The notes under the pieces were generated by a model. That model saw only the letters and a list, made by a program, of their open reading frames with translations, was not told where the DNA came from and made no database searches. DNA of 61,899 bases from Candidatus Parcubacteria bacterium. Lineage in GTDB: Bacteria; Patescibacteriota; Minisyncoccia; Phycocordibacterales; JBAYGS01. The position numbers and the translations under genes were made by a program. Within the stretch, counting starts at the first letter, position 1. Each line of letters opens with the position of its first letter. Positions 4,448 to 52,189 of the stretch are shown here, piece after piece. The stretch spans positions 1 through 61,899 of the forward strand of contig JBDKKW010000003.1 in NCBI GenBank assembly GCA_039795895.1. Reading direction: 5' to 3'.

Positions 4448-6520
4448 ATGGCAAAAAACCCCACCAACAATTTTATGTATTTACTGAGATTCTTTGTCGG
4501 TGTGCTTGTGTTGGTGCCTGTTTTTGCGCATGCTTCGGTCAAGACTAATGTGTCGACTCCGCCAGTGAGTAATCGGGGACTTGTAGGCTACTGGTCGTTT
4601 AACGGTACTGATGTGAATTCCACGACCGTATTTGATCGCAGTACGTACGCATACGATGGCACCCTTCACGGTATGGGGACAAAATACTCACTTTCTGGAA
4701 AAGTGGGTCAGGCGTTTTCTTTTGATGGTACCGGTGCGTATATATCACTCCCAAATCTTGATATGCAAGCGCCTTTGTCGTGGTCATTTTGGATTAAGCG
4801 GGGGAGGATTGGTCACGCGAACGATGATTTTTTTGGTGGTGACAGCGCGGGTTCGTGGGGTCTTGGCTTCAACGCAGACAATACACTCTTTCTTACAAAA
4901 GTGGGGGTTAATAGTGTAAGCTCGACGGGCACTATCACCGATATGAAGTGGCATCATGTGGCGGTGACTTATGATGGTACGAATGTACGATTTTATTTTG
5001 ACGGTGTTCTTGATTCTGCTCCAAGCTATACGAGTGGTACCTATACTAGTAGTGGGGGTGCGTACGCGATGGGGAGGGTAAATGTTTCGGCGTATTTTAG
5101 TGGCGCACTTGATGAGGTGCGGATGTATAGTCGGGTGTTGTCGGCATCAGAGGTGAGGACCTTGTACGGTAGTGGGTCGGTAAAGATTGCGAGTCCTTCA
5201 TCGAGTAATGCGGTGGTACCCAATGGTCTGATTGGTCTCTGGTCGTTTAATACCAATGACGTTGTGAATGGGACACTGATCGATCGAAGTGTTTCTGGAA
5301 ATACTGCGTATTTGTACAACACGGCAACATCGACGGTCTACAGTACTGGACGTATCGGTCAGGGGCTGACTTTTGATGGTGCCGATGATTATGCAAAGAC
5401 GCTCGCCACGACTTGGGGGGTGACCAATACTCTCTCGATGTCGGCGTGGATAAAAACAACGAGTAATACGTTGTCGATCGCATCGCTGGGCCACACCACA
5501 GTCACCGATGAAGCTTTGATGTATGTGTATGGTGGTACGGCGGCGCTGTATTTTTCTCAGGGGACTGGTGTGTACACAGGTGTCAATGGCACAAAGATAG
5601 TGAATGACGGCGTGTGGCACCATGTGGTGGTTGTGGCTACGGGACCGTCTGTTGCGTGCGCGAATATACGGATATATGTCGATGGTGTGCGTGATACTGA
5701 ACATTGTATTGCAGAAAGTGTCTCTAGTATCAGTGATGCTACGCCTCGTAATTTTTTCATCGGATGGCGTTCATGGGGTGGGGGCGGATTTGAATTGTAT
5801 AATGGGAGTATCGATGATGTTCGGTTATATAATCGCGTGCTTACTTTAGGAGAGATAGGACAACTATATCGTTCGAGCGGTGTTACCAATCTCAATGTGT
5901 CTCAGAATAAAAAGAGCATTGGGGGACTTGTGGGATTGTGGTCATTTGATGGGTCAGATATGGTGACAGGGACCACCGCCTACGATCGGAGTGGAAATGG
6001 GTATAATGGAGCACTGCATGGATTGGCGACTTCCAGTGTTGCGGTCGGCAAGGTGGGACAGGCGCTCCGATTCAATGGAGTCGACAATTATATTAGCGTC
6101 CCTAATTTTGATATGAGCACTTTGAGTGCTTTTGGGTGGGTCAATATTACTCCCGGGAGTACTCAGGCGATTATTGATAGTCTCGCTAATGGCGGATGGG
6201 GTTTGTATATTGCGTCAGACGACACGGTGCGTTTTACCAAGCGGGGTAGTGCCGAAGTTGTCTCAGTGGGTACGGTATCGCGTGGATGGCACTATATTGG
6301 TGTCACCTATGATGGTGCAAATGCACGATTGTATATTGATGGTGTGCTCGACAGTGCGCCAGCCTTTAGTCAAACATTTTCTAATGGCGCGATGGGGTAT
6401 GGTATCGGTGGCTTGAGTTCTGCTGGGTTTACAATCAACGGCCGTCTCGATGATGTGCGTTTGTACAATAGAGTGCTCTCTTCGACTGAAGTAAGGACGC
6501 TGTACAATACAGAAAAGTAG
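4448..6520 (+). CDS. Secreted triple-LamG protein, tandem paralog of 2254..4380
   Basis: 690-aa ORF with a signal-like N-terminus (FFVGVLVLVPVFAHA). Same three-module layout (LDEVRMYSRVLSASEVRTLY, IDDVRLYNRVLTLGEIGQLY, LDDVRLYNRVLSSTEVRTLY). Confidence 0.8.
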   Translation: MAKNPTNNFMYLLRFFVGVLVLVPVFAHASVKTNVSTPPVSNRGLVGYWSFNGTDVNSTTVFDRSTYAYDGTLHGMGTKYSLSGKVGQAFSFDGTGAYISLPNLDMQAPLSWSFWIKRGRIGHANDDFFGGDSAGSWGLGFNADNTLFLTKVGVNSVSSTGTITDMKWHHVAVTYDGTNVRFYFDGVLDSAPSYTSGTYTSSGGAYAMGRVNVSAYFSGALDEVRMYSRVLSASEVRTLYGSGSVKIASPSSSNAVVPNGLIGLWSFNTNDVVNGTLIDRSVSGNTAYLYNTATSTVYSTGRIGQGLTFDGADDYAKTLATTWGVTNTLSMSAWIKTTSNTLSIASLGHTTVTDEALMYVYGGTAALYFSQGTGVYTGVNGTKIVNDGVWHHVVVVATGPSVACANIRIYVDGVRDTEHCIAESVSSISDATPRNFFIGWRSWGGGGFELYNGSIDDVRLYNRVLTLGEIGQLYRSSGVTNLNVSQNKKSIGGLVGLWSFDGSDMVTGTTAYDRSGNGYNGALHGLATSSVAVGKVGQALRFNGVDNYISVPNFDMSTLSAFGWVNITPGSTQAIIDSLANGGWGLYIASDDTVRFTKRGSAEVVSVGTVSRGWHYIGVTYDGANARLYIDGVLDSAPAFSQTFSNGAMGYGIGGLSSAGFTINGRLDDVRLYNRVLSSTEVRTLYNTEK

Positions 6521-6559
6521 AATCTTGTTATACTATAAGGACGAATTAAATTTAATGTT

Positions 6560-7609
6560 ATGAAAAAAATAAAAGTAGCAATCAACGGATTTGGACGAAT
6601 CGGACGAGCCTTTTTGAAGGTAGCGCGAGAGCGAACGAGCGAGATAGAGGTGGTGGCGATTAATGACTTGGGTGATATCAAGAGCTTTGCTTACTTGCTC
6701 AAATACGATACTGCGTATGGTGTGAGTGATTTTGAGGTGAAAGTGAAGGCGGATAATTCTGCATTGATTGTCGATGGCAAAGAGGTTGCGTTTGTCAGTG
6801 AACGCGACGCGACAAAACTTCCATGGGGGAAACTCGGTGTGGATGTGGTGGTAGAGTCGACCGGACTTTTCACTAGTTTTGAAAAAGCCCAGGTGCATAT
6901 TACGGCTGGGGCAAAACGAGTGGTGATCTCGGCGCCAGCGAAGGATGAAGCCGGAGTCGCCGGCGCCCCAGTCGTAGCTGGCGAAACCGTCTTGATGGCT
7001 ATGAATGAAGAAAAGCTTGGTACCTGCCAAATCACTTCAAACGCGTCTTGTACCACCAACGCTGGTTCGCCTTTACTTGCGATTCTCGATGGAGCGCTTG
7101 GTGTCGAAAAAGCTCTTCTTAATACCGTGCACGGCTACACCGCGAGCCAGTCTCTCGTAGACGGTCCAAATAAAAAAGATTTTCGTGAAGGCCGTGCTGC
7201 GGCGCAAAATATAGTGCCTTCTTCAACTGGCGCGGCGATTGCGGTGACCAAGATTATTACCCACTTGAAAGGACTTTTTGACGGGGTCTCAATGCGAGTG
7301 CCGGTGGTTACCGGTTCTATCGTAGATGTGACTTTTGTCTCAAAGAAAAATACTTCAGCCGAGGAGGTAAATGCGATTTTGAAAAAGGCCGCGGACTCTG
7401 CTCGCTGGAAAGGGATTTTTACGGTGACCGAAGAGCCTCTTGTTTCGAGCGACATTATCGGCAATCGCCACGCGTCTATCGCTGACCTCGCTTTTACTCG
7501 CGTGGTTGGGGGCAATCTCGTAAAGGTAATGGCGTGGTACGACAACGAGATGGGGTATACCTACACGCTCGTGGATCATGTGATTAAGGCGGGGAAGTTG
7601 GTTAAATAA
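6560..7609 (+). CDS. gap: Glyceraldehyde-3-phosphate dehydrogenase
   Basis: MKKIKVAINGFGRIGR Rossmann start, SNASCTTN catalytic-Cys motif, WYDNEMGY near the C-terminus. Confidence 0.95.
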   Translation: MKKIKVAINGFGRIGRAFLKVARERTSEIEVVAINDLGDIKSFAYLLKYDTAYGVSDFEVKVKADNSALIVDGKEVAFVSERDATKLPWGKLGVDVVVESTGLFTSFEKAQVHITAGAKRVVISAPAKDEAGVAGAPVVAGETVLMAMNEEKLGTCQITSNASCTTNAGSPLLAILDGALGVEKALLNTVHGYTASQSLVDGPNKKDFREGRAAAQNIVPSSTGAAIAVTKIITHLKGLFDGVSMRVPVVTGSIVDVTFVSKKNTSAEEVNAILKKAADSARWKGIFTVTEEPLVSSDIIGNRHASIADLAFTRVVGGNLVKVMAWYDNEMGYTYTLVDHVIKAGKLVK

Positions 7610-7612
7610 TTT

Positions 7613-7900
7613 ATGAACATAATTTCATTTGTAATTATCTCTGTCGTTTTGGGGCTATTAAATGGTTTTCTTGGAAGAAATCCTAACAAGAAATATCGGG
7701 TCTATACGGTATCAGGTTATTGCATTTTTATTGGTGGATTAGTGTTTTTATGGTTAATGTTTACTTCACCCTCGAAATATCCTCTGGGGTTATGGGATTA
7801 CCTTACTTTCCCCGGAATTCTAATTATTCTCGGTATTCTAATAATTATTGCCTCCCATTTTAAATTGGATGAAAAAGACAAATCCCATAAACTTTGGTAA
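7613..7900 (+). CDS. Small hydrophobic ORFan membrane protein (95 aa), visibly A+T-rich
   Basis: ORF with about three hydrophobic segments and no recognisable family. It sits between gap and rpiB. Confidence 0.5.
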   Translation: MNIISFVIISVVLGLLNGFLGRNPNKKYRVYTVSGYCIFIGGLVFLWLMFTSPSKYPLGLWDYLTFPGILIILGILIIIASHFKLDEKDKSHKLW

Positions 7901-7979
7901 AAATGATATTACTTCCTATTCCAGTACCAGTAGACTCCTGCAGGGAAGTAGGGTTAATCATCATTAAATAAAAAAGGAA

Positions 7980-8447
7980 ATGAAAAAAGATTTTAAACCA
8001 AGAATTTTGTTTGCCACTGACCATGCTGGGTTTGAGTTGAAAAATCAGCTCCTGGCTTTTGTAAAAGAGCTTGGGTATGAGACTGAAGATATGGGCGCAT
8101 ATACGTTTGATGCAAATGACGACTACCCGGGAATTATGGCGCCGGTCGGTTTTGCAGTGGGGAGCAATCCAGAAAAGTGCAAAGCGATTATTTTAGGTGG
8201 CTCGGGACAAGGGGAGGCGATAGTGGCGAACCGATTTCCGGGCGTACGGGCAGTGGTCTACTACGGAGGAAATCTTGAAATTATCAAACTTTCTCGAGAG
8301 CACAATGATGCCAACATTCTCTCTCTCGGCGCTCGTTTTTTGACCGTCGACGAAGCTAAGGAAGTGGTAAGGCTTTGGCTTGAGACTGCTTTTTCTGGTG
8401 AGGAAAGACATATTCGACGCTTGGAACAAATAGATCATATCTCGTAG
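7980..8447 (+). CDS. rpiB: Ribose-5-phosphate isomerase B
   Basis: RpiB/LacAB family pattern (ILFATDHAGFELK, GGSGQGEAIVANR, HNDANILSLGARF). Its stop TAG 8445-8447 is the first unit of the heptamer array. Confidence 0.9.
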   Translation: MKKDFKPRILFATDHAGFELKNQLLAFVKELGYETEDMGAYTFDANDDYPGIMAPVGFAVGSNPEKCKAIILGGSGQGEAIVANRFPGVRAVVYYGGNLEIIKLSREHNDANILSLGARFLTVDEAKEVVRLWLETAFSGEERHIRRLEQIDHIS

Positions 8448-8477
8448 ACATTAGTAGTTAGACACTAGACATTAGCC
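8445..8477. repeat. TAG-heptamer array, left arm (TAGACAT TAGTAGT TAGACAC TAGACAT TAGCC)
   Basis: Period-7 units. TAG at 8445, 8452, 8455, 8459, 8466 and 8473 covers all three frames. 8445-8463 is the perfect reverse complement of 8848-8866. Confidence 0.85.
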
Positions 8478-8481
8478 AGAA

Positions 8482-8853
8482 ATGAAAATTCATAATTATG
8501 AAAAGCTTGTGGTCTGGCAAAAATCAATGGACTTAGTCCAGGAGGTGTATACTTTGTCTGAGAAATTCCCCAAGACAGAATTATACGGTTTAACAAATCA
8601 AATACGAAGGAGTGCTGTATCAATACCCTCAAATATAGCCGAAGGGAGTCATCGAAAGACGGATAACGATTTTTAGCAATTTTTGTGTATCGCTTCCGGA
8701 TCAGCTGCTGAGCTACAGACGCAAATTAAGATTGCTCGGAGATTGGGCTTTTGTGTTTCTTTGATAGCGGAGTATGGTAAAATTGAGTCACTTATAGTAG
8801 AAGTAAGAAAAATGCTGTTCGGGATGGTCGATAATCTTAAGTCTAATGTCTAA
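8482..8853 (+). pseudogene. Four-helix-bundle protein gene (23S rRNA intervening-sequence protein / Avd-like family) interrupted by an in-frame TAG
   Basis: MKIHNYEKLVVWQKSMDLVQEVY..IRRSAVSIPSNIAEGSHRKTDNDF, then TAG (8674-8676), then QFLCIASGSAAELQTQIKIARRLGF.. in the same frame to TAA 8851-8853. Together they give a family-typical ~123 codons. Confidence 0.75.
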
Positions 8854-8876
8854 CTACTAATGTCTAACGTCTAGTC
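8841..8876. repeat. TAA-heptamer array, right arm (GTCTAAT GTCTAAC TACTAAT GTCTAAC GTCTAGT C), inverted relative to 8445..8477
   Basis: TAA at 8844, 8851, 8858 and 8865 and TAG at 8872 (exact period 7) cover all frames. The array ends 2 nt before the rpe ATG. Confidence 0.85.
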
Positions 8877-8878
8877 CC

Positions 8879-9586
8879 ATGGAAATCCTCCCCGCAATCA
8901 TACCCAAAAATATCGAAGACCTTTGCGAACAATGCGCGATGGTAAATGGGTCTGTTGATATGGTCCAAATCGATATTTGCGACGGGATCTTTGTGTCTTC
9001 AAAAAGTTGGCCGTATCGAGAGGATTCAACTGAGTACACTTCGGATTTCAAAGATATTATTGCTGAGCGAGCCGAATTCCCATTTTGGGATCGACTTAAT
9101 TTCGAAGTACATTTGATGGTGGCGCATCCTGAGCAAGTGGTAAACGATTGGATCTCTGCTGGAGCTAGTCGAATCGTAGTCCACCTCGAAGCACTCAAAG
9201 ACCCAAAGCAATTTTTTGCAGATTTTCGTGAGCGTTTTCCAAAAAGTGGCGGTTCACTCCTCAGTGTCGAGCTTGGGGTGGCACTTCGTCTCGAGACGCC
9301 GGTAGATGTAGTGGCTCCTTTTTTGAACGAAGTGGATTTTGTACAGCTGATGAGTATCGCGAAGATCGGTGGTCAGGGACAAAAATTTGATGAAAAGACA
9401 CTCAATCGTATCGACATTTTGCGTACGCAGTATCCAGGGACAGTGGTGAGTGTGGATGGGGGAATTACTTTTGAAATTGCCACCGAGCTACTGTCTGTCG
9501 GCGCGAATCGGTTGGTGATAGGTTCGGCTATCTTTAACGCCGACAATCCTCACGAAATTATTGATGAATTAAAAGCATTATCATAG
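8879..9586 (+). CDS. rpe: Ribulose-phosphate 3-epimerase-like protein (divergent)
   Basis: TIM-barrel Rpe signatures: VQIDICDG, EVHLMV, VDFVQLMS, VSVDGGI, VIGSAIF. It has an insertion relative to typical Rpe. Confidence 0.75.
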   Translation: MEILPAIIPKNIEDLCEQCAMVNGSVDMVQIDICDGIFVSSKSWPYREDSTEYTSDFKDIIAERAEFPFWDRLNFEVHLMVAHPEQVVNDWISAGASRIVVHLEALKDPKQFFADFRERFPKSGGSLLSVELGVALRLETPVDVVAPFLNEVDFVQLMSIAKIGGQGQKFDEKTLNRIDILRTQYPGTVVSVDGGITFEIATELLSVGANRLVIGSAIFNADNPHEIIDELKALS

Positions 9587-9628
9587 TGGGGATTGGTCGT
9601 TTATGGAGAGTGGTATAATGAGAAGGCA

Positions 9629-10492
9629 ATGCTCACTCCAGAGAAAATTAAAAATCTCGAACTAAAAGCCAACGATATTCGCCAGTCGATTATCAAAATG
9701 TTGCTCGAAGCAGGCTCGGGACATACCGCAGGTCCTCTCGATATGGCAGACATTTTTACCTATCTCTACTTTCACGCACTCAAACACAATCCGAAAGTGC
9801 CAGGCTGGGCTGATCGCGATCGAGTAGTGCTTTCAAATGGCCATATTTGTCCGGTGCTCTATGCGACGATGGCACATTCAGGTTATTTTCCAGTTGAGGA
9901 ATTGAAGACGTTGCGAAAGTTCGGTTCGCGACTCCAGGGTCATCCACATCGAGAATTTTTGCCAGCACTTGAGACGAGCTCGGGACCACTTGGTTCTGGT
10001 TTATCACAAGCAGTGGGGATGGCACTCGCGGATCGTGTCGACAATGGTCGCACCTCAAACAAGCAATTTTATTGCCTCACTGGTGATGGCGAGCTCGACT
10101 GCGGACAGATATGGGAGTCGGCAATGCTTGCAGGCAAGGAAAAGATCCAAAATCTCACGGTTTTTATCGACCGCAACAACATCCAGATAGATGGCTTCAC
10201 CGAAGACATCATGCCGCTCAATCCGCTTGGCGATAAATGGCAGGCTTTTGGCTGGCATGTACAGGAGATCGATGGTCATAATTTTGCGATGATAGATGAG
10301 GCAGTCGGGCAGGCACAGGCCGTGTTCGACAAGCCGTCGGTGATCATCGCGAATACGATCGCCTCAAAAGGCGTCCCCGAATTCGAGCGAATGTTTGAAT
10401 GGCATGGCAAGCCACCAAATAAAGACGAGGCGGAGTTGGCGCTTCGTGAACTAAGGACTTGGCGCGGGAAGATTAAAGCTGAGCATGAATAA
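9629..10492 (+). CDS. Transketolase, N-terminal (TPP-binding) subunit
   Basis: SGHTAGPLDMADIF, LSNGHICPVLYA, CLTGDGELDCGQIWE. ATG 9629 is preferred over the upstream TTG 9593 used by the ORF track. Confidence 0.9.
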   Translation: MLTPEKIKNLELKANDIRQSIIKMLLEAGSGHTAGPLDMADIFTYLYFHALKHNPKVPGWADRDRVVLSNGHICPVLYATMAHSGYFPVEELKTLRKFGSRLQGHPHREFLPALETSSGPLGSGLSQAVGMALADRVDNGRTSNKQFYCLTGDGELDCGQIWESAMLAGKEKIQNLTVFIDRNNIQIDGFTEDIMPLNPLGDKWQAFGWHVQEIDGHNFAMIDEAVGQAQAVFDKPSVIIANTIASKGVPEFERMFEWHGKPPNKDEAELALRELRTWRGKIKAEHE

Positions 10493-10497
10493 TTTTT

Positions 10498-10878
10498 ATG
10501 GAATCTTCAGAACAAATAACGCGACACAATCTTAGGAGGGAGACCGTTGAGCTCGGTGTTCGAGACCAGGTGCGAGGATATCGTGTGGTGCTTGAAAAGT
10601 GCGGAACAGCGTCAGATGTTCTGAAAATGACTAGTGTGGATAATTATCAGCTTGAAGGTCGAATGAATATGACTCGTGAGACGGCATATCTAGTTCTCCT
10701 TGATGCTGGATATACCGCCGAAGAAGCTATAGCGTATCTGGAGGCTATTCCAAGGAGAGAGATCGATGAGAAAGTATTTGTTGATGCTGAAAAATGGGAT
10801 ACTGACCCATATTACCGGAGACTCAAGGAGAATGATTTTGAAGAAAGATTAGCTCGATTACTTAAGGATGTAAATTAA
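10498..10878 (+). CDS. Hypothetical acidic protein (126 aa)
   Basis: ORF only, no recognisable motif. It lies between the two transketolase halves. Confidence 0.45.
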   Translation: MESSEQITRHNLRRETVELGVRDQVRGYRVVLEKCGTASDVLKMTSVDNYQLEGRMNMTRETAYLVLLDAGYTAEEAIAYLEAIPRREIDEKVFVDAEKWDTDPYYRRLKENDFEERLARLLKDVN

Positions 10879-11231
10879 TGCAAAATACAAAAACAGAAAG
10901 ATATTGGTTAAAATGGGGATTAATTTTTCTTAAAGGGAGTTTTGTGCTCACAGTAATTTGTTTTTTAAATACGAGTTACAATGATTTTATTCCTACATAC
11001 GCTTTGCCATTAATTCCTGGAGAATTAACTATGGGTTTTATAAGTAGGTTTTTTGGATCTCAAGAATCGTGGATTATAGGTCCTTACAGTCATACTATTG
11101 TGGTATTGGCGGTATTAATTGTGGCTTTATCGGAGTACTTTTTATTCGGTGCACTTATTGGTGCACTTATCGATTTGCTTCATGGAAAAATCGAAAATCT
11201 TCCGGTGTCTCGTCGAATATCTAGCTCCTAG
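10878..11231 (+). CDS. Hypothetical membrane protein (117 aa), very A+T-rich
   Basis: ORF with hydrophobic segments. About 27% G+C in its first 100 nt by hand count, versus about 48% at the start of 11381..12373. Confidence 0.5.
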   Translation: MQNTKTERYWLKWGLIFLKGSFVLTVICFLNTSYNDFIPTYALPLIPGELTMGFISRFFGSQESWIIGPYSHTIVVLAVLIVALSEYFLFGALIGALIDLLHGKIENLPVSRRISSS

Positions 11232-11380
11232 TGTCTGATATAATCTATTTATATGCTTAACACACTTCAAAAAATAAATCCTCATGCTTCGCTAATATAT
11301 CGTCTCTCTAAGGATGTGCGACGATGTGATTTCGCTAAATCAGCTATGCAGGATGAGCAAACTCTGAGACAAATAATTTT

Positions 11381-12373
11381 ATGATAAATCCACAGGCAAA
11401 ATTAAACAGCAAATTATTTGATGCTGATGTCGAGCAGTTGCCGATCCGCAAAGGGTTTGGCGAGGGGTTGTTGGCCGCGGCGGAAATGGATATGAACGTA
11501 GTGGGGCTATGTGCTGACTTGACGGAGTCGACCCAGATGCACCTCTTCAAGAAAAAATTCCCGGAGCGATTTGTAGAGATGGGAATTGCCGAGCAAAATA
11601 TGGCAAGTGTCGCGAGTGGTATGGCAGCAATGGGGAAGATTCCCTTCATCACCTCGTACGCGATGTTTTCTCCGGGGCGAAACTGGGAGCAGATTCGCAC
11701 GACGATTTGCTACAACAATCAGCCGGTGAAAATTGCCGGCTCTCATGCAGGTGTGTCGGTGGGTCCAGATGGTGGCACACACCAAGCGATCGAGGATATG
11801 GCGCTGATGCGGATTATCCCGAAGATGGTAGTGATTTCGCCATGCGACTCAATTGAAGCCAAAAAAGCGACTATCGCTTTGGCCAAGACAAAAAGTCCGA
11901 CCTATATCCGTCTGGCTCGCGAGAAAACACCGATTGTGACCACCGATGCGACACCATTTGAAATCGGTAAGGCACAAATCCTCTGGTCACCAGCGACGGG
12001 TAAAGCAGATGTGGCGATTATCGCCACTGGCGCTTTGGTGTATCGAGCTTTGCAGGTAGCAAAGGCGCTTGAGAAAGAAAAGATTGGGGTGACGGTAGTG
12101 AATGTGGCGACGATCAAACCACTTGATACTGAGACGATTTTAAAAGTGGCAAAAAATGCCGGGCGGGTAGTGACCGTGGAAGAGCATCAGATGGCCGGAG
12201 GATTGGGTAGTGCAGTGGCTGAATTTTTGGCGACAGCTCATCCTGTACCGATGGAATTTGTGGCAGTCAAAGATCAGTTTGGACAGTCGGGCACGCCAGA
12301 TGAACTGATTGCTCATTATGGATTGGATGAGAAGGGGATTACTTATGCAGTGAAAAAAGTGATGAAGAGGTAA
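11381..12373 (+). CDS. Transketolase, C-terminal (pyrimidine-binding) subunit
   Basis: FVEMGIAEQNMASVASGMA, GSHAGVSVGPDGGTHQAIEDMALMR, TVEEHQMAGGLGSAV. Confidence 0.9.
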   Translation: MINPQAKLNSKLFDADVEQLPIRKGFGEGLLAAAEMDMNVVGLCADLTESTQMHLFKKKFPERFVEMGIAEQNMASVASGMAAMGKIPFITSYAMFSPGRNWEQIRTTICYNNQPVKIAGSHAGVSVGPDGGTHQAIEDMALMRIIPKMVVISPCDSIEAKKATIALAKTKSPTYIRLAREKTPIVTTDATPFEIGKAQILWSPATGKADVAIIATGALVYRALQVAKALEKEKIGVTVVNVATIKPLDTETILKVAKNAGRVVTVEEHQMAGGLGSAVAEFLATAHPVPMEFVAVKDQFGQSGTPDELIAHYGLDEKGITYAVKKVMKR

Positions 12374-12494
12374 AACTTCCATAATCGGCGCACTTCTTTG
12401 TCGCCGGCTCCGTCCGCTCCCGCACTGTATGTCCATATACAGTTTGGTTGCGTTACTCGCCGGCTTCGCGAATTGCATCCAATTATGGAAGTTT
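12373..12494. repeat. Stop-codon-anchored element closed by inverted repeats
   Basis: 13-bp perfect arms AAACTTCCATAAT (12373-12385, starting on the last base of the tkt stop) and ATTATGGAAGTTT (12482-12494). They enclose 96 nt rich in CGCTC/GGCTCC/TACTCGCC words. Confidence 0.6.
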
Positions 12495-12526
12495 GTAGAC
12501 ACGGGGTAGTAGTTAGACGTTAGACA
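12495..12526. repeat. Solo TAG-heptamer patch (..GTAGTAG TTAGACG TTAGACA)
   Basis: TAGTAGTTAGAC (12507-12518) is identical to 8452-8463 and 50905-50916. TAG at 12496, 12507, 12510, 12514 and 12521 covers all three frames. Confidence 0.65.
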
Positions 12527-12530
12527 AGAA

Positions 12531-12569
12531 AAATCCCCCAGAAATTGCAGAGCAATTTCTGGGGGATTT
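12531..12569. terminator. Bidirectional hairpin terminator between convergent tkt and kinase genes
   Basis: AAATCCCCCAGAAATTGC / loop AGAG / CAATTTCTGGGGGATTT. The arm sequence recurs at 48586..48620. Confidence 0.75.
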
Positions 12570-12615
12570 AAGTCTTCTAATTGTTGGTTGTAAATTGTAA
12601 GTTGTATGTTTGTCC

Positions 12616-13614
12616 CTAAATTTCTTTCGGCCAATAATCTGCGGGTGCTTTTGCAAGCCACTCTTCAATTTCCGCGAGTGTCAGCAGGCCTTTTTGGGCA
12701 CCTACGTATTGCACTACCGACATAGAATTGACCGGGGCGATACGCAAAGCTTCGAGCACTGTTTTTCCAAGAGCAAGTGCAGACACAAAGGTAGATGCAA
12801 AAGCGTCTCCCGCACCGGTTCTTTCGTAAGGAGGTTTTGGATCAGGGTATATCCTCATAAAGTACGATTTATTACCATCATACAAATATGCTCCCTTTGG
12901 TCCATCTGTAATCACTACAATCTTTGGTCCCAACCCCGCAATCCCTACGAGTAATTTTTTAATGTCTTTTTCTTCGGTATTCAAAATTCGCCTTGATTCT
13001 TCAACGTTGCATACAAAGATTTCTGTTCGCGCATATAATCGCTTTAGTTTTTCTACTCCGAGCTTCATCTGAAAAGTCCCCGGCTGGAAAGCCACTTTTA
13101 CTTCTGGATTTTTCTCAACGTAGTCCATTATTTCCTCATGGTATCTTTCACTTGCACCTCCAAGCGAGCTCACGTATAGCCATTTTGGTGCGGTAATGGT
13201 GGGTAGTGTGTAGGGATACTCGTTGTGTCTGACCAAGATGGTTCGTTCAGCTTCATACCAGAGGACATAGTGGTAGTTGGTCTGGATGTTTTTGTGTCGC
13301 GAGAGATATTTTGTCGAGACATTGTTTTTCTTAAGCTCGCTTATACACTCATCTCCATTTGTGTCCATGCCAAGGTCGGATACCAATGCAGAAGAAAGGC
13401 CGAGTCGTGCTCCGGCTACAGAGGCGTTGGCACTATTACCGACAGCTTTCACCACTTCGACAAATTCGTACGGAATCTTATCGGCAAAATTCATACAAAT
13501 TTGGCAAGCAGACGTATCGACATCACAATGCACCGACGCTTCCTTGAGTCGGATAAATGCATCGGTAGTAATATCGCCAATCGCCACAAAATCGTATTTT
13601 TTAGAAAAAATCAT
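12616..13614 (-). CDS. PfkB-family carbohydrate/nucleoside kinase
   Basis: MIFSKKYDFVAIGDITTDAFI start, GNSANASV, and C-terminal TGAGDAFASTFVSALA motif. ATG 13614 is chosen over the longer ORF-track start. Confidence 0.85.
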   Translation of the reverse strand: MIFSKKYDFVAIGDITTDAFIRLKEASVHCDVDTSACQICMNFADKIPYEFVEVVKAVGNSANASVAGARLGLSSALVSDLGMDTNGDECISELKKNNVSTKYLSRHKNIQTNYHYVLWYEAERTILVRHNEYPYTLPTITAPKWLYVSSLGGASERYHEEIMDYVEKNPEVKVAFQPGTFQMKLGVEKLKRLYARTEIFVCNVEESRRILNTEEKDIKKLLVGIAGLGPKIVVITDGPKGAYLYDGNKSYFMRIYPDPKPPYERTGAGDAFASTFVSALALGKTVLEALRIAPVNSMSVVQYVGAQKGLLTLAEIEEWLAKAPADYWPKEI

Positions 13615-13686
13615 GATAGGCAAATTATAGCATAGACAACAAAAAATCCACGAACACATCGGTGTTCGCGGAGGGGGATGGGCACA

Positions 13687-18575: not shown

Positions 18576-18627
18576 TTCATATCTATCTTGCTAGAAGCTA
18601 GAAGCTTCTTCTGGTATACTTCCCCCT

Positions 18628-48533: not shown

Positions 48534-48585
48534 AGGGGAAGTATATAGTAAAAAGTACAAAGTATGAAGTATATAATACGGGGAA

Positions 48586-50956: not shown

Positions 50957-52189
50957 TTAGAAGCTCAAATTACCTTTTGCGACAAGTAATGGGGTCGCTG
51001 TGTGGTCGGGGGTCTGGGTGAGGTGTTGCATATAGCCCGCACAAGCAATCATCACTGCATTGTCGGTCGAGAGGGCGAGAGATGGGAAGAAGAGTTTGAT
51101 ATGCGGATGTTCGGTCACGAGTGCTTCAAATGCCTTGCGGATGTGGGTGTTGGCGATCACGCCGCCTCCGATAATAAGTGTCTGTGCGCCGTAGTGTTCA
51201 AGTGCTTTTTTTGTTTTAGTGACGAGGACCTCGGTCACCGCATCTTCAAATTCGCGAGCGATGACTTCTTTGTCTTTTTCGGTGAGGGTTTTTAGTTCTT
51301 GTGTAAGGTAGAGCACTGCTGTTTTGAGACCAGAAAAAGAAAAATCAAAATCTTTGGTGTGGAGCATCGGACGTGGGAGAGGATAAGGGGTTGGTTGACC
51401 AGTGTTCGAGAATCTCGATTTTGTTGCTAGTCTTGAAATCTCTGGACCGCCGGGATAGGGTAGGCCGAGCATGCGGGCTACTTTATCAAAAGCTTCACCG
51501 ACAGCATCGTCCCGGGTTTGGCCGATGTTGGTGTATGTGCCCCAGCTTTCGATCAAGATGAGCTCGGTGTGGCCTCCGGAAATAAGGAGGGCGAGAGCGG
51601 GGAAAAGGATTGGGGAGTTGTTAGTTGATAGTTTACGGTCTTTAGTCTGAGGATCAGAAATTAGAAATTTTGACTTAGTAATTTCTCTGTCTACCAAAAC
51701 AGAGACGATATGTCCCTCCATGTGATTGACGGGTATGATGGGAATATTCCAAAGGAGGGAAAGTGCTCGAGCGAAATTGATGCCGACCCAAAGTGCTGGT
51801 TCGAGTCCGGGTCCGACAGTGACCGCGATGGCATCGATGGAGGGTTTTTCTATTTTTGGAAGATACGCCAAGAATTGTTCTTGTAGCTCCGGTTCTTTTG
51901 TTAGAATGGCTTTAATGTCTTCGACCTGTTCATTAGAAATTAGAAATTGGGAATTAGAAATTCCGAAACCCGATTCTTCCAAAGTTTTCTTAAACAAGGG
52001 AATCAGGTTTCGGCTGTGTTCTCGTTTTGCGAGTGCGGGGAAGACACCTCCGTATTGTTCGTGAATTTTAATCTGAGAATTAAGTGCATTTCCGAGCACC
52101 GAAAAAGCGGGTGTATTTTTATCACCGGTCGCGGATACTATGCATACTGCGGTTTCGTCGCAGGAGGTTTCGATGCCGAGGATGAGCAT
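50957..52189 (-). CDS. tsaD: tRNA N6-adenosine threonylcarbamoyltransferase TsaD with two in-frame insertions
   Basis: GIETSCDET, VNHMEGH, ISGGHTEL, GGGVIAN. ATG 52189 (MLILGIETS). It carries extra segments GFGISNSQFLISNEQ.. and EITKSKFLISDPQTKDRKLSTN relative to E. coli TsaD. Confidence 0.9.
   Translation of the reverse strand: MLILGIETSCDETAVCIVSATGDKNTPAFSVLGNALNSQIKIHEQYGGVFPALAKREHSRNLIPLFKKTLEESGFGISNSQFLISNEQVEDIKAILTKEPELQEQFLAYLPKIEKPSIDAIAVTVGPGLEPALWVGINFARALSLLWNIPIIPVNHMEGHIVSVLVDREITKSKFLISDPQTKDRKLSTNNSPILFPALALLISGGHTELILIESWGTYTNIGQTRDDAVGEAFDKVARMLGLPYPGGPEISRLATKSRFSNTGQPTPYPLPRPMLHTKDFDFSFSGLKTAVLYLTQELKTLTEKDKEVIAREFEDAVTEVLVTKTKKALEHYGAQTLIIGGGVIANTHIRKAFEALVTEHPHIKLFFPSLALSTDNAVMIACAGYMQHLTQTPDHTATPLLVAKGNLSF
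51618..51687. repeat. Period-7 array inside tsaD (plus strand TTGTTAG TTGATAG TTTACGG TCTTTAG TCTGAGG ATCAGAA ATTAGAA ATTTTGA CTTAGTA ATTTCTC)
   Basis: Read directly from the sequence. It encodes the second TsaD insertion on the minus strand. Confidence 0.75.
51932..51966. repeat. Five tandem heptamers inside tsaD (ATTAGAA ATTAGAA ATTGGGA ATTAGAA ATTCCGA)
   Basis: Read directly from the sequence. It encodes GISNSQFLISN on the minus strand. Confidence 0.85.

Follow-up and report, generated by a model that had tools for sequence, protein, structure and literature searches.

A putative intervening-sequence-type cassette bounded by inverted heptamer arrays at the rpiB-rpe junction of a Candidatus Parcubacteria bacterium

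What is a four-helix-bundle gene doing between rpiB and rpe, two pentose-phosphate genes that in some relatives are only four or five nucleotides (nt) apart, and what are the inverted arrays of stop codons, repeated every 7 nt, that bracket it? The question is raised by a 61.9-kb stretch (61,899 nt, hereafter the window) of contig JBDKKW010000003.1 from a Candidatus Parcubacteria bacterium (Patescibacteria, candidate phyla radiation [CPR]). A first, sequence-only reading of this DNA had proposed either a small mobile cassette or an RNA-processing module like the intervening sequences (IVSs) of rRNA genes. On balance, we favor an answer in which positions 8445 to 8875 are one copy of a widespread, horizontally mobile, selfish cassette of the IVS type, ~0.43 kb long, that rides on the transcription of operons. 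We lean just as far, and no further, toward its being the same kind of element as the IVSs of 23S rRNA genes that contain an open reading frame (ORF), located here in the 4-nt rpiB-rpe junction of a pentose-phosphate operon.

The rpiB-rpe junction with and without a cassette

Relatives of the locus were collected by searches with the cassette protein and with rpe, followed by contig look-ups, and the resulting loci were labeled L001 and so on. The close relatives are roughly equidistant from the window, with identities of ~91% in GAPDH, ~92% in the N-terminal half of transketolase, ~82% in rpiB and ~80% in rpe. Empty junctions, which the sequence-only reading had proposed to look for, are present among them. 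In three independent assemblies (L083, L084 and L085) the end of rpiB and the start of rpe read TCA TAA CCCC ATG, and in L173 they read AGT TGA TTAAC ATG, i.e., a stop codon, 4 to 5 nt and then the ATG. In the window, TCG TAG is followed by the insert (ACATTAG...GTCTAG) and then by TCCC ATG. A nearly identical cassette, with a protein 96.7% identical in amino acids to that of the window, is found in L001. Four more assemblies (L086 to L089) contain a different cassette (AGT TAA, then TAGTTGT...TTCTAA, then G ATG); the protein of L086 is 48.7% identical to that of the window, and its arms are built from TAGTTNT and AACTAAN units. In L090, rpiB is not next to the junction. The comparison of empty and occupied junctions indicates that the insert is a discrete 427-nt unit (8448 to 8874, plus strand, one of the two bounding TAGs counted) lying between the stop codon and the original 4-nt intercistronic spacer, which is kept 3' of the insert at 8875 to 8878 (TCCC, CCCC in the empty site). 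A cassette has been gained, lost and replaced at this single junction.

The cassette is also younger than its flanks. Nucleotide identity between the window and L001 is 79% in rpiB and 76% in rpe, against 95% in the cassette gene; the left arm and the spacer up to the ATG are identical at 37 of 37 positions, and the block of high identity stops at the arm ends. Synonymous divergence (dS) reaches 0.93 in rpiB and 2.4 in rpe, against 0.205 in the cassette. Together, the dS values and the identity boundary indicate that the cassette entered one of the two lineages well after they split, and as a whole unit. More distant hosts (L002, L171 and L172, with rpe 40 to 61% and rpiB 55 to 59% identical) contain the window's type of cassette at the same junction, with proteins 67 to 72% identical to the window's, the TAGACAT unit in common and synonymous sites already saturated (proportion of synonymous differences [pS] of 0.92). 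Cassette similarity does not track host similarity, because distant hosts carry the closer cassettes; a 68% identical cassette is found in a 45% identical host and a 49% identical one in an 81% identical host. Cassettes have been transferred between lineages at this site.

Two outcomes that would have weakened the sequence-only reading did not occur. The inverted repeat might not have been conserved where the gene is; the arrays are kept at the same site in L001, L002, L171 and L172. They might also have been unique to this locus, with no empty sites in relatives; arrays are present in most of the ~154 cassettes that we scored (see below), and empty junctions exist. Of the two options first proposed, the small mobile cassette is thus backed by the presence/absence polymorphism, by the nonorthologous cassette of L086, by an age lower than that of the flanks and by the recurrence of related cassettes in unrelated contexts.

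One of the distant hosts, L172, has a left array (~826 to 955) grown to 12 TAGACAT and 5 TAGACAG, 17 units against 5 in the window, with a right arm of about five. This expansion indicates that the arrays can slip like ordinary simple-sequence repeats and that the two arms need not stay equal. A phase-variable repeat would lie within an ORF or promoter and switch expression by changes in copy number; copy number does vary here, yet the arrays are intercistronic and paired. Other junctions of the operon vary as well. The gap between GAPDH and rpiB holds a small membrane ORF in the window (7613 to 7900), a PemK toxin gene in L086 (2641 to 3027), a Fic gene in the P0006 contig and a 66-amino-acid ORF in L083 (3342 to 3542). 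Between the transketolase halves there are two unassigned ORFs in the window (10498 to 11231), none called in L086 and L083, and one of 88 amino acids in L087 and L088. None of these variable genes has flanking heptamer arrays, and those of the window and PemK were rejected as further cassettes; a weak 15-nt inverted repeat is found on both sides of PemK.

In the window, the genes on the plus strand encode, in order, a LamG-domain protein, GAPDH, the small membrane ORF, rpiB, the cassette, rpe, the N-terminal half of transketolase, the two unassigned ORFs and the C-terminal half of transketolase, after which comes a convergent PfkB kinase gene. Between the latter two, on the minus strand (12531 to 12569), we found an 18-bp stem with a T-rich tail, likely a terminator that closes the operon region. 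The gene for ribose-5-phosphate isomerase B, rpiB (7980 to 8447; PF02502, E value of 8.6e-38), ends on a TAG (8445 to 8447) that doubles as the first unit of the left array, as had been noticed before; relatives stop at the same residue, with TAA or TGA. The left (5') arm (8445 to 8475, plus strand) reads TAGACAT TAGTAGT TAGACAC TAGACAT TAG, with five TAGs phased at exact 7-nt steps (8445, 8452, 8459, 8466 and 8473), and a 6-nt spacer separates it from the start of the cassette gene (8482 to 8853, plus strand, 123 codons). The right (3') arm (8834 to 8875, plus strand) is its reverse complement, made of ATGTCTA-type heptamers (N4-CTA/CTN), and overlaps the end of the cassette gene (its last 6 codons plus the stop). 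Five of its units are clear (8841 to 8875; GTCTAAT GTCTAAC TACTAAT GTCTAAC GTCTAGT), a sixth (8834 to 8840) is degenerate, and Tandem Repeats Finder reports 4.7 copies with a period of 7. The gene for ribulose-phosphate 3-epimerase, rpe (PF00834), follows at 8879 to 9586 on the plus strand.

The inverted arrangement of the arrays and the 19-nt perfect repeat claimed in the sequence-only reading were both reproduced. The segment 8445 to 8463 is the exact reverse complement of 8848 to 8866 (0 expected from 100 shuffles), as part of an inverted repeat of 31 nt with 90% complementarity (8445 to 8475 versus 8836 to 8866). The pattern TAGNNNNTAGNNNNTAGNNNNTAG, i.e., (TAGNNNN)x3-TAG, is confined within the window to the two arrays, with two matches on the plus strand (left array) and two on the minus strand (right array) against a shuffle expectation of 0.00. 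The period-7 stop triplets do occupy all three frames on both strands. A minor correction concerns the end of the right array, which had been placed 2 nt before the ATG of rpe; the gap is 3 nt (CCC; TCCC counted from the last TAG, with the ATG at 8879). Solo period-7 arrays are present elsewhere in the window, at 12581 to 12610 (TTGTAAN) and 48540 to 48575 (AAGTATN), both apparently between likely genes, and at 51930 to 51963 (ATTAGAA), inside a minus-strand ORF of 428 amino acids. None of the other period-7 arrays qualified as a cassette, as they have no inverted partner within 3 kb, and a short one at 18590 to 18606 pairs only with itself. Similar solo heptamer arrays have been reported from other bacteria.

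The assignment of the enclosed gene to the four-helix-bundle family proved right, with full-length matches to PF05635 (E value of 1.8e-38, 131.4 bits against a cutoff of 33.8) and TIGR02436 (127.5 bits, cutoff of 24), and it is the single PF05635 gene of the whole window. What had been overlooked is that its frame is broken by an in-frame TAG at codon 65 (8674 to 8676, plus strand), a CAG (Gln) in L001, which splits it into ORFs of 64 and 56 amino acids. An alternative genetic code was excluded, as rpiB ends on TAG where relatives use TAA or TGA and the codon is CAG in L001. The termination of rpiB on TAG indicates that this triplet is a true stop in the host organism, and the one at 8674 to 8676 is either a recent nonsense mutation or a sequence error. 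Since the arms are still intact, the ORF may have been inactivated very recently. The comparison of codons with L001 (dN/dS of 0.05) argues for strong purifying selection on the protein. Among solved structures, the closest is that of Xanthomonas XCC0516 (PDB 2GSC, five chains; E value of 1.5e-26). The corresponding structure paper reportedly describes an assembly of five four-helix bundles. The Avd proteins of diversity-generating retroelements (DGRs) belong to the same fold superfamily, and matches of the cassette protein to the profiles bAvd (PF22296; 25.7 bits, cutoff of 40) and NF033474 (22.3 bits, cutoff of 80) were below threshold. Among the genes from 4448 to 13659 (the LamG protein, GAPDH, rpiB, rpe, the split transketolase, PfkB and three ORFs without a significant Pfam match) there was no reverse transcriptase and no template/variable repeat pair beside the cassette.

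Complementary heptamer arms around cassettes of many phyla

TIGR02436/PF05635 is a very large family of unknown function, with at least 7933 proteins at an E value of ≤1e-10 among the matches listed. To assess how general the architecture is, we retrieved 80 loci from bacterial assemblies (one genome per species) and another 80, independent of these, from metagenomes, in which 85 and 69 cassettes, respectively, were scored (~154 in all). The metagenome scan, made with the closest protein, returned no relative above 60% identity and hence no further states of the junction, and this set was used as an independent replication. The loci come from Patescibacteria, Bacteroidota, Acidobacteriota, Clostridia, Gammaproteobacteria, Chloroflexota, Nitrospirota, Omnitrophota and others, and nearly all of them show the same plan when judged by eye. 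Left and right units differ between loci and match each other within one (TAGCTTN/NAAGCTA, GTGGTTA/TAACCAC, CAGTGGA/TCCACTG, GAGTACT/AGTACTC, GGGATCA/TGATCCC; also CTTAAGG). The left and right arms of a locus were complementary above the 95th percentile of cross-locus pairs in 61 of 85 genome loci and 46 of 69 metagenome loci, with a median score of 13 to 14 against 7 for cross-locus pairs, while the same arms scored as direct repeats gave background values. The best period was 7 in 57 left and 53 right arms of the 85 and in 44 and 44 of the 69, followed by 8 (12 to 16 arms on each side per set); segments drawn at random from these loci showed no preference for period 7.

Within the units, AG is invariant in 43 of 54 left arrays (TAG in 28) and CT in 45 of 55 right arrays, and the four spacer bases vary, even inside one array. 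Three-frame stops on the sense strand were found in 34 of 54 left arrays; our estimate for a random cyclic heptamer is about one third, so they are enriched without being universal. Rather than defining the arrays, they seem often to result from a conserved TAG core. The description of the arrays as stop codons thus holds at the window locus, where rpiB uses them, and not as a general feature; what is conserved in general is AG, usually TAG, every 7 nt. We also considered AG on the left and CT on the right as a marker of gene polarity and discarded it, because the arms are reverse complements and the pattern reads alike on both strands.

The geometry of the cassettes is compact. Arms have a median length of 26 nt (interquartile range of 22 to 32), the left one ends a median of 17 nt before the start codon, and the right one begins a median of 5 nt past the stop, or inside the gene in a third of the cases. 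In 67 of 99 cases the upstream gene stops inside the left arm or no more than 10 nt away from it, and the downstream start is a median of 17 nt from the right arm. Of the cassette genes whose two neighbors share one strand, 102 point the same way as these neighbors and 7 the opposite way (p of ~1e-22).

Units were counted in the 154 cassettes as the longest chain of AG (left) or CT (right) at exact 7-nt steps, ignoring kinship. Chains of 3, 4, 5, 6 and 7 were found in 19, 9, 38, 11 and 6 left arms and in 14, 14, 36, 10 and 4 right arms, and in the controls they were almost never longer than 3. The commonest class of the cross-table is five units in both arms (22 of 154 cassettes). Counting any dinucleotide instead of AG or CT again gave a mode of five at period 7, and no peak at periods 6, 8 and 9. 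The chain counts of L001 are five and six; the arms of the window, nearly identical, look the same by eye.

The units may differ between copies on a single contig, each array then complementing its own partner and no other (L164, L053 and L051). Cassettes with proteins 70 to 84% identical share a common unit in unrelated contexts (L099/L108 and L004/L010/L092/L101/L106). At other sites the cassettes are stable, as in the orthologous Bacteroidota pairs L022/L038, L065/L070 and L040/L041. In four Patescibacteria loci (L012, Paceibacteria; L018, Kaiserbacteria; L025, an unclassified metagenome-assembled genome; L052, Saccharibacteria) a cassette lies directly 5' of one conserved gene whose product begins M(Q/R)F(Q/K)VPQF, with different units in the four, which is either an ancient insertion or a preferred target. 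Viral contigs also bear cassettes. Those of the viral or metagenomic loci L099, L174, L178 and L179 are apparently at one position between the same phage-like genes, with arrays well preserved in L099, L178 and L179 and decayed in L174. On five viral contigs (L193 to L197), three copies of TAGACAT, the window's unit, stand alone directly before an ATG, with no four-helix-bundle gene alongside.

We also found hairpins without a gene, in which an array of heptamer or octamer units, a short loop and the inverted array follow each other. They lie in the flanks of the cassette genes of L092 and L101, where their unit is that of the adjoining cassette, and at L013 (76 to 165), L036 (3754 to 3824), L076 (5482 to 5597) and L061 (2377 to 2583). 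These may be miniature derivatives, by analogy with the rRNA IVSs that have no ORF. No rRNA motif was detected in any of the ~190 loci fetched. PF05635 ORFs do occur in rRNA insertions of CPR bacteria (PMC11270868), and the rRNA location that gave the family its name is the exception.

Predicted pairing in the transcript and the competing explanations

In the predicted fold of the RNA from 8436 to 8885, the arms are paired in the minimum-energy structure and in the centroid structure alike (−120.8 kcal/mol, z score of −3.2, none of 100 shuffles as stable). The closing helix (22 + 5 bp) is formed by 8443 to 8470 as the 5' strand and 8838 to 8869 as the 3' strand, both on the plus strand. The arms of the nonhomologous L086 cassette again form the closing helix in both kinds of structure (z score of −2.8). 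A promoter scan found no plus-strand promoter-like site 5' of the cassette or within it, the sole terminator-like match at the cassette (8734 to 8748, inside the gene) is no more than shuffles yield, and Rfam gave no family match from 8200 to 9100.

The IVS-type cassette that we favor would be devoid of its own promoter and transcribed by read-through. In the transcript, the 5' arm, with a UAG every 7 nt, would pair with the 3' arm in a helix of ~27 to 31 bp from which the gene is looped out, and RNase III would probably cut this helix, freeing the cassette RNA and parting the rpiB cistron from that of rpe. As long as the 5' arm is neither paired nor cut, it would halt ribosomes in every frame, rpiB itself ending on the first unit. 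The copy of the window would be one that has just lost its reading frame by the premature TAG with the arms intact. Read-through transcription and arm pairing in the RNA we consider likely; for cleavage of the arm helix by RNase III, as in rRNA IVSs, the case by analogy is evenly balanced. Intercistronic RNase III stems are known from the early mRNA of phage T7, in which cleavage separates cistrons with expression unharmed. Those sites are short local hairpins that do not move, unlike the long-range stem around a gene in the cassette.

The closest known system is the IVS of the 23S rRNA of Coxiella burnetii, which is 428 nt long (the cassette, 427 nt), encloses an ORF of the same PF05635 ("S23p") family in a 28-bp terminal stem cut by RNase III and has three to four GACAGAT heptamers 5' of this ORF, in a copy number that varies between strains (PMC4990558). 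The arms here, predicted to pair over ~27 to 31 bp, agree in length with that stem. In architecture, the match supports the second of the two original options, the IVS-type module. Like those of Leptospira and Coxiella, whose ORFs belong to the same family, the cassette is distributed sporadically and transferred horizontally. In Coxiella the ORF is decaying and apparently not expressed, and horizontal acquisition was deduced (PMC4990558). The ORF thus decays as the RNA element persists, which the in-frame TAG of the window parallels. The same paper cites an old idea that the ORF serves mobility (PMC4990558). The differences are that the cassette lies between protein-coding genes of an mRNA operon rather than in an rRNA helix, that RNase III excision is demonstrated for rRNA IVSs and the stem of the window comes from a predicted fold, and that the Coxiella report contains no complementary heptamer array in the 3' arm, no five-unit rule and no claim of generality. 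The statement of the sequence-only reading that neither arrangement had been described needs qualifying, because the Coxiella heptamers were noticed earlier; it stands for the general pattern, as we found no description of inverted heptamer arrays flanking PF05635 genes outside the Coxiella IVS in the full-text literature, subscription journals excepted.

Heptamer repeats as such have been reported before, as TAACTGA in Beggiatoaceae, cyanobacteria and Bacteroidetes (PMC4679880) and as GGGAATC in Xanthomonas, with ~70 convergent pairs and, in the supplement, one array over the start of XCC0516 (PMC4692102). These and the STRR repeats of Calothrix and Nostoc are tandem intergenic 7-nt units, typically in 2 to 6 copies (mostly four in Xanthomonas), that abut start or stop codons, as the arrays of the cassette do, and some include stop triplets. 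They were treated as regulatory or G-quadruplex elements and are mostly solo, whereas here they are paired around a gene. Neither paper (PMC4679880, PMC4692102) mentions the four-helix-bundle family, and "intervening" and "23S" have 0 matches in them.

Several observations fit poorly with an IVS-type cassette that works through its stem. A simple stem leaves unexplained why the arms are tandem heptamers, why the mode at five units is so sharp and why TAGACAT persists at saturated divergence, and the existence of solo, partnerless arrays suggests that arrays may act independently of stems. Mismatches in the arms are G.U in 88 cases and A.C in 113, which lends no support to selection on the sense RNA; the purine-rich left arm confounds this comparison. 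No recombinase or transposase is encoded in the cassette, the 3-nt TAG...TAG repeat that bounds it is indistinguishable from an array unit, and the Coxiella ORF is seemingly not expressed, whereas the dN/dS of 0.05 here says that the protein matters.

Part of this would be accounted for if the arrays were above all binding sites of the cassette's own protein, imagined by analogy as a homopentamer with a positively charged barrel that reads one NAG-N4 unit per subunit, for autoregulation, RNA protection or a mobility reaction. We regard this as possible and incline against it as the main purpose of the arrays. It would explain the quantized number of units, with its mode at five and no peak at periods 6, 8 and 9, and the invariant AG/CT amid variable spacer bases, as well as the retention of TAGACAT between cassettes with saturated synonymous sites and the strong purifying selection on the protein (dN/dS of 0.05). 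Avd is a pentameric, positively charged barrel that acts in complex with DGR RNA (PMC6182149), XCC0516 (2GSC) has five chains, and a GGGAATC array overlaps the XCC0516 start codon in the Xanthomonas genome. In XAG repeats on a stem's 5' strand, the protein HutP recognizes A and G and thereby melts the stem, and in the HutP/TRAP operators, as in the cassette, NAG is phased in the 5' strand of an RNA stem with unconserved spacers, the number of repeats being the number of subunits or binding surfaces (PMC2425495). The folds of these proteins are unrelated to that of the cassette protein. The left array of the window has this phased NAG pattern, with five TAGs at exact 7-nt spacing. In HutP the NAG spacing is 7 nt and in TRAP it is 5 to 6 nt. 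On the other hand, the 3' arm in RNA is the complement (CUN), so that one specificity cannot read both arms; many different units occur alongside proteins 45 to 60% identical, which would demand fast coevolution of a small helical protein; arrays range from 2 to 17 units (L172); and five 7-nt units are also about three turns of RNA helix. The proposal comes from sequence and analogy, and the unit counts behind it ignore kinship among cassettes. A protein bound to the transcript's 5' arm, or to single-stranded DNA, would be a competitor of arm pairing, and the two models can coexist. That a pentameric protein binds the five-unit array, in a manner compatible with read-through, pairing and RNase III cleavage, seems to us at best slightly more plausible, still short of an even chance, and such binding could act as a HutP-like switch between a bound and a paired 5' arm.

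The remaining alternatives place the meaning of the arms outside the RNA. They could be terminal inverted repeats or hairpin ends of a nonautonomous DNA element, moved in trans by a recombinase of the host or of foreign origin, or else gained and lost when replication slips across the hairpin, with RNA pairing as a by-product. That inverted repeats stimulate the precise excision of what lies between short direct repeats is known, as in Tn10, and counts in favor of such an element, and so do the clean insertion or deletion at a single junction, bounded by TAG...TAG or TAA...TAA, the lack of an excess of G.U over A.C mismatches, the gene-less array-loop-array hairpins in the same genomes, which resemble miniature derivatives, and the cassettes on viral contigs. 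The bounds are TAG...TAG in the window, TAG...TAA in L001 and TAA...TAA in L086, triplets that are also array units. Miniature transposable elements with inverted repeats (MITEs) and the repetitive extragenic palindromes of the REP/RAYT system are likewise short units bounded by inverted repeats (terminal ones in MITEs), with clean presence/absence polymorphism and gene-less hairpin derivatives; unlike theirs, the ends of the cassette are tandem arrays that differ from copy to copy, and the enclosed gene is not a transposase. Many nearly identical copies with the same ends, as expected of a MITE, were not seen, since the window has one copy and copies on one contig often differ in their ends; no single sequence-specific transposase could serve such arms. 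There is no transposase gene in or next to the cassettes (a Y1 transposase-like gene on the P0006 contig is ~2.3 kb away), and the co-orientation of 102 against 7 is not predicted for an element with symmetrical ends, so we judge a purely DNA-level element unlikely. An integron cassette was rejected. The heptamers GTTAGAC and GTCTAAC happen to fit the integron core and inverse-core consensus (GTTRRRY and RYYYAAC), but a single 3' attC site would be expected, and here there are arrays on both sides, a unit that differs by locus and a housekeeping operon as context. Far less probable still is an ordinary, vertically inherited operon gene with local regulatory or insulating repeats (three-frame stops, translational coupling). 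The presence of the same gene type at rpiB-rpe in hosts down to 45% rpe identity, the stable cassettes at orthologous Bacteroidota sites and the three-frame stops in 34 of 54 left arms, about twice the estimated ~0.33, are what one would expect of it. It is at odds with two empty sites and one nonorthologous replacement among relatives ~91% identical in GAPDH, a cassette dS 5 to 10 times below that of the flanks with an identity boundary at the arm ends, the conflict between cassette and host similarity and the recurrence of cassette type and unit in unrelated contexts. A chance simple-sequence repeat or an assembly artifact is next to negligible in our view; slippage or misassembly can make short tandem repeats, yet there were no shuffle matches, the arms are identical in an independent assembly (L001), and two independent collections both show the pattern.

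A probable IVS-type element outside rRNA

What the rRNA IVSs and their ORF do, and where they came from, has been unsettled since the early 1990s, and the rpiB-rpe junction offers a clean natural experiment, with empty sites, occupied sites and sites occupied by a different cassette. The rule of five heptamers per arm with complementary arms is structurally simple and open to direct assay, and it provides a possible common explanation for the scattered reports of heptamers in Xanthomonas, Beggiatoa, cyanobacteria and Coxiella. The locus also counsels caution in annotation by guilt by association. PF05635 genes have been listed as CRISPR associated because they lie inside cas operons (PMC3936711, PMC10910872), for instance between cmr3 and cmr2 with gaps of 86 and 6 nt (PMC3936711), a spacing that fits an operon-wedging cassette rather than a functional partnership; such genes wedge into any operon, cas operons included.

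A broader proposal, which we regard as doubtful, is that the PF05635 cassettes and the bacterial heptamer arrays form one pan-bacterial family of selfish elements, in which NAG arrays of five units at period 7 are read by a pentameric four-helix-bundle protein whose own gene they enclose, RNase III cleaves the arms once they have paired in the host transcript, and the unit inserts itself, co-oriented, into tight intercistronic junctions and now and then into an rRNA helix. If this were true, "mRNA IVSs" would make up a much larger class, with the classical rRNA IVSs as its rare special case, hairpins without a gene and arrays standing alone would derive from it and explain the excess of heptanucleotide repeats in bacterial genomes, and the reported associations with cas operons would be hitchhiking insertions.

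For the organism, the cassette represents a natural design for inserting a gene into an operon with the downstream gene apparently not disabled. For the family, it is best filed as an IVS-type element outside rRNA, and it may be the entry point to a possibly large, undescribed class of elements.

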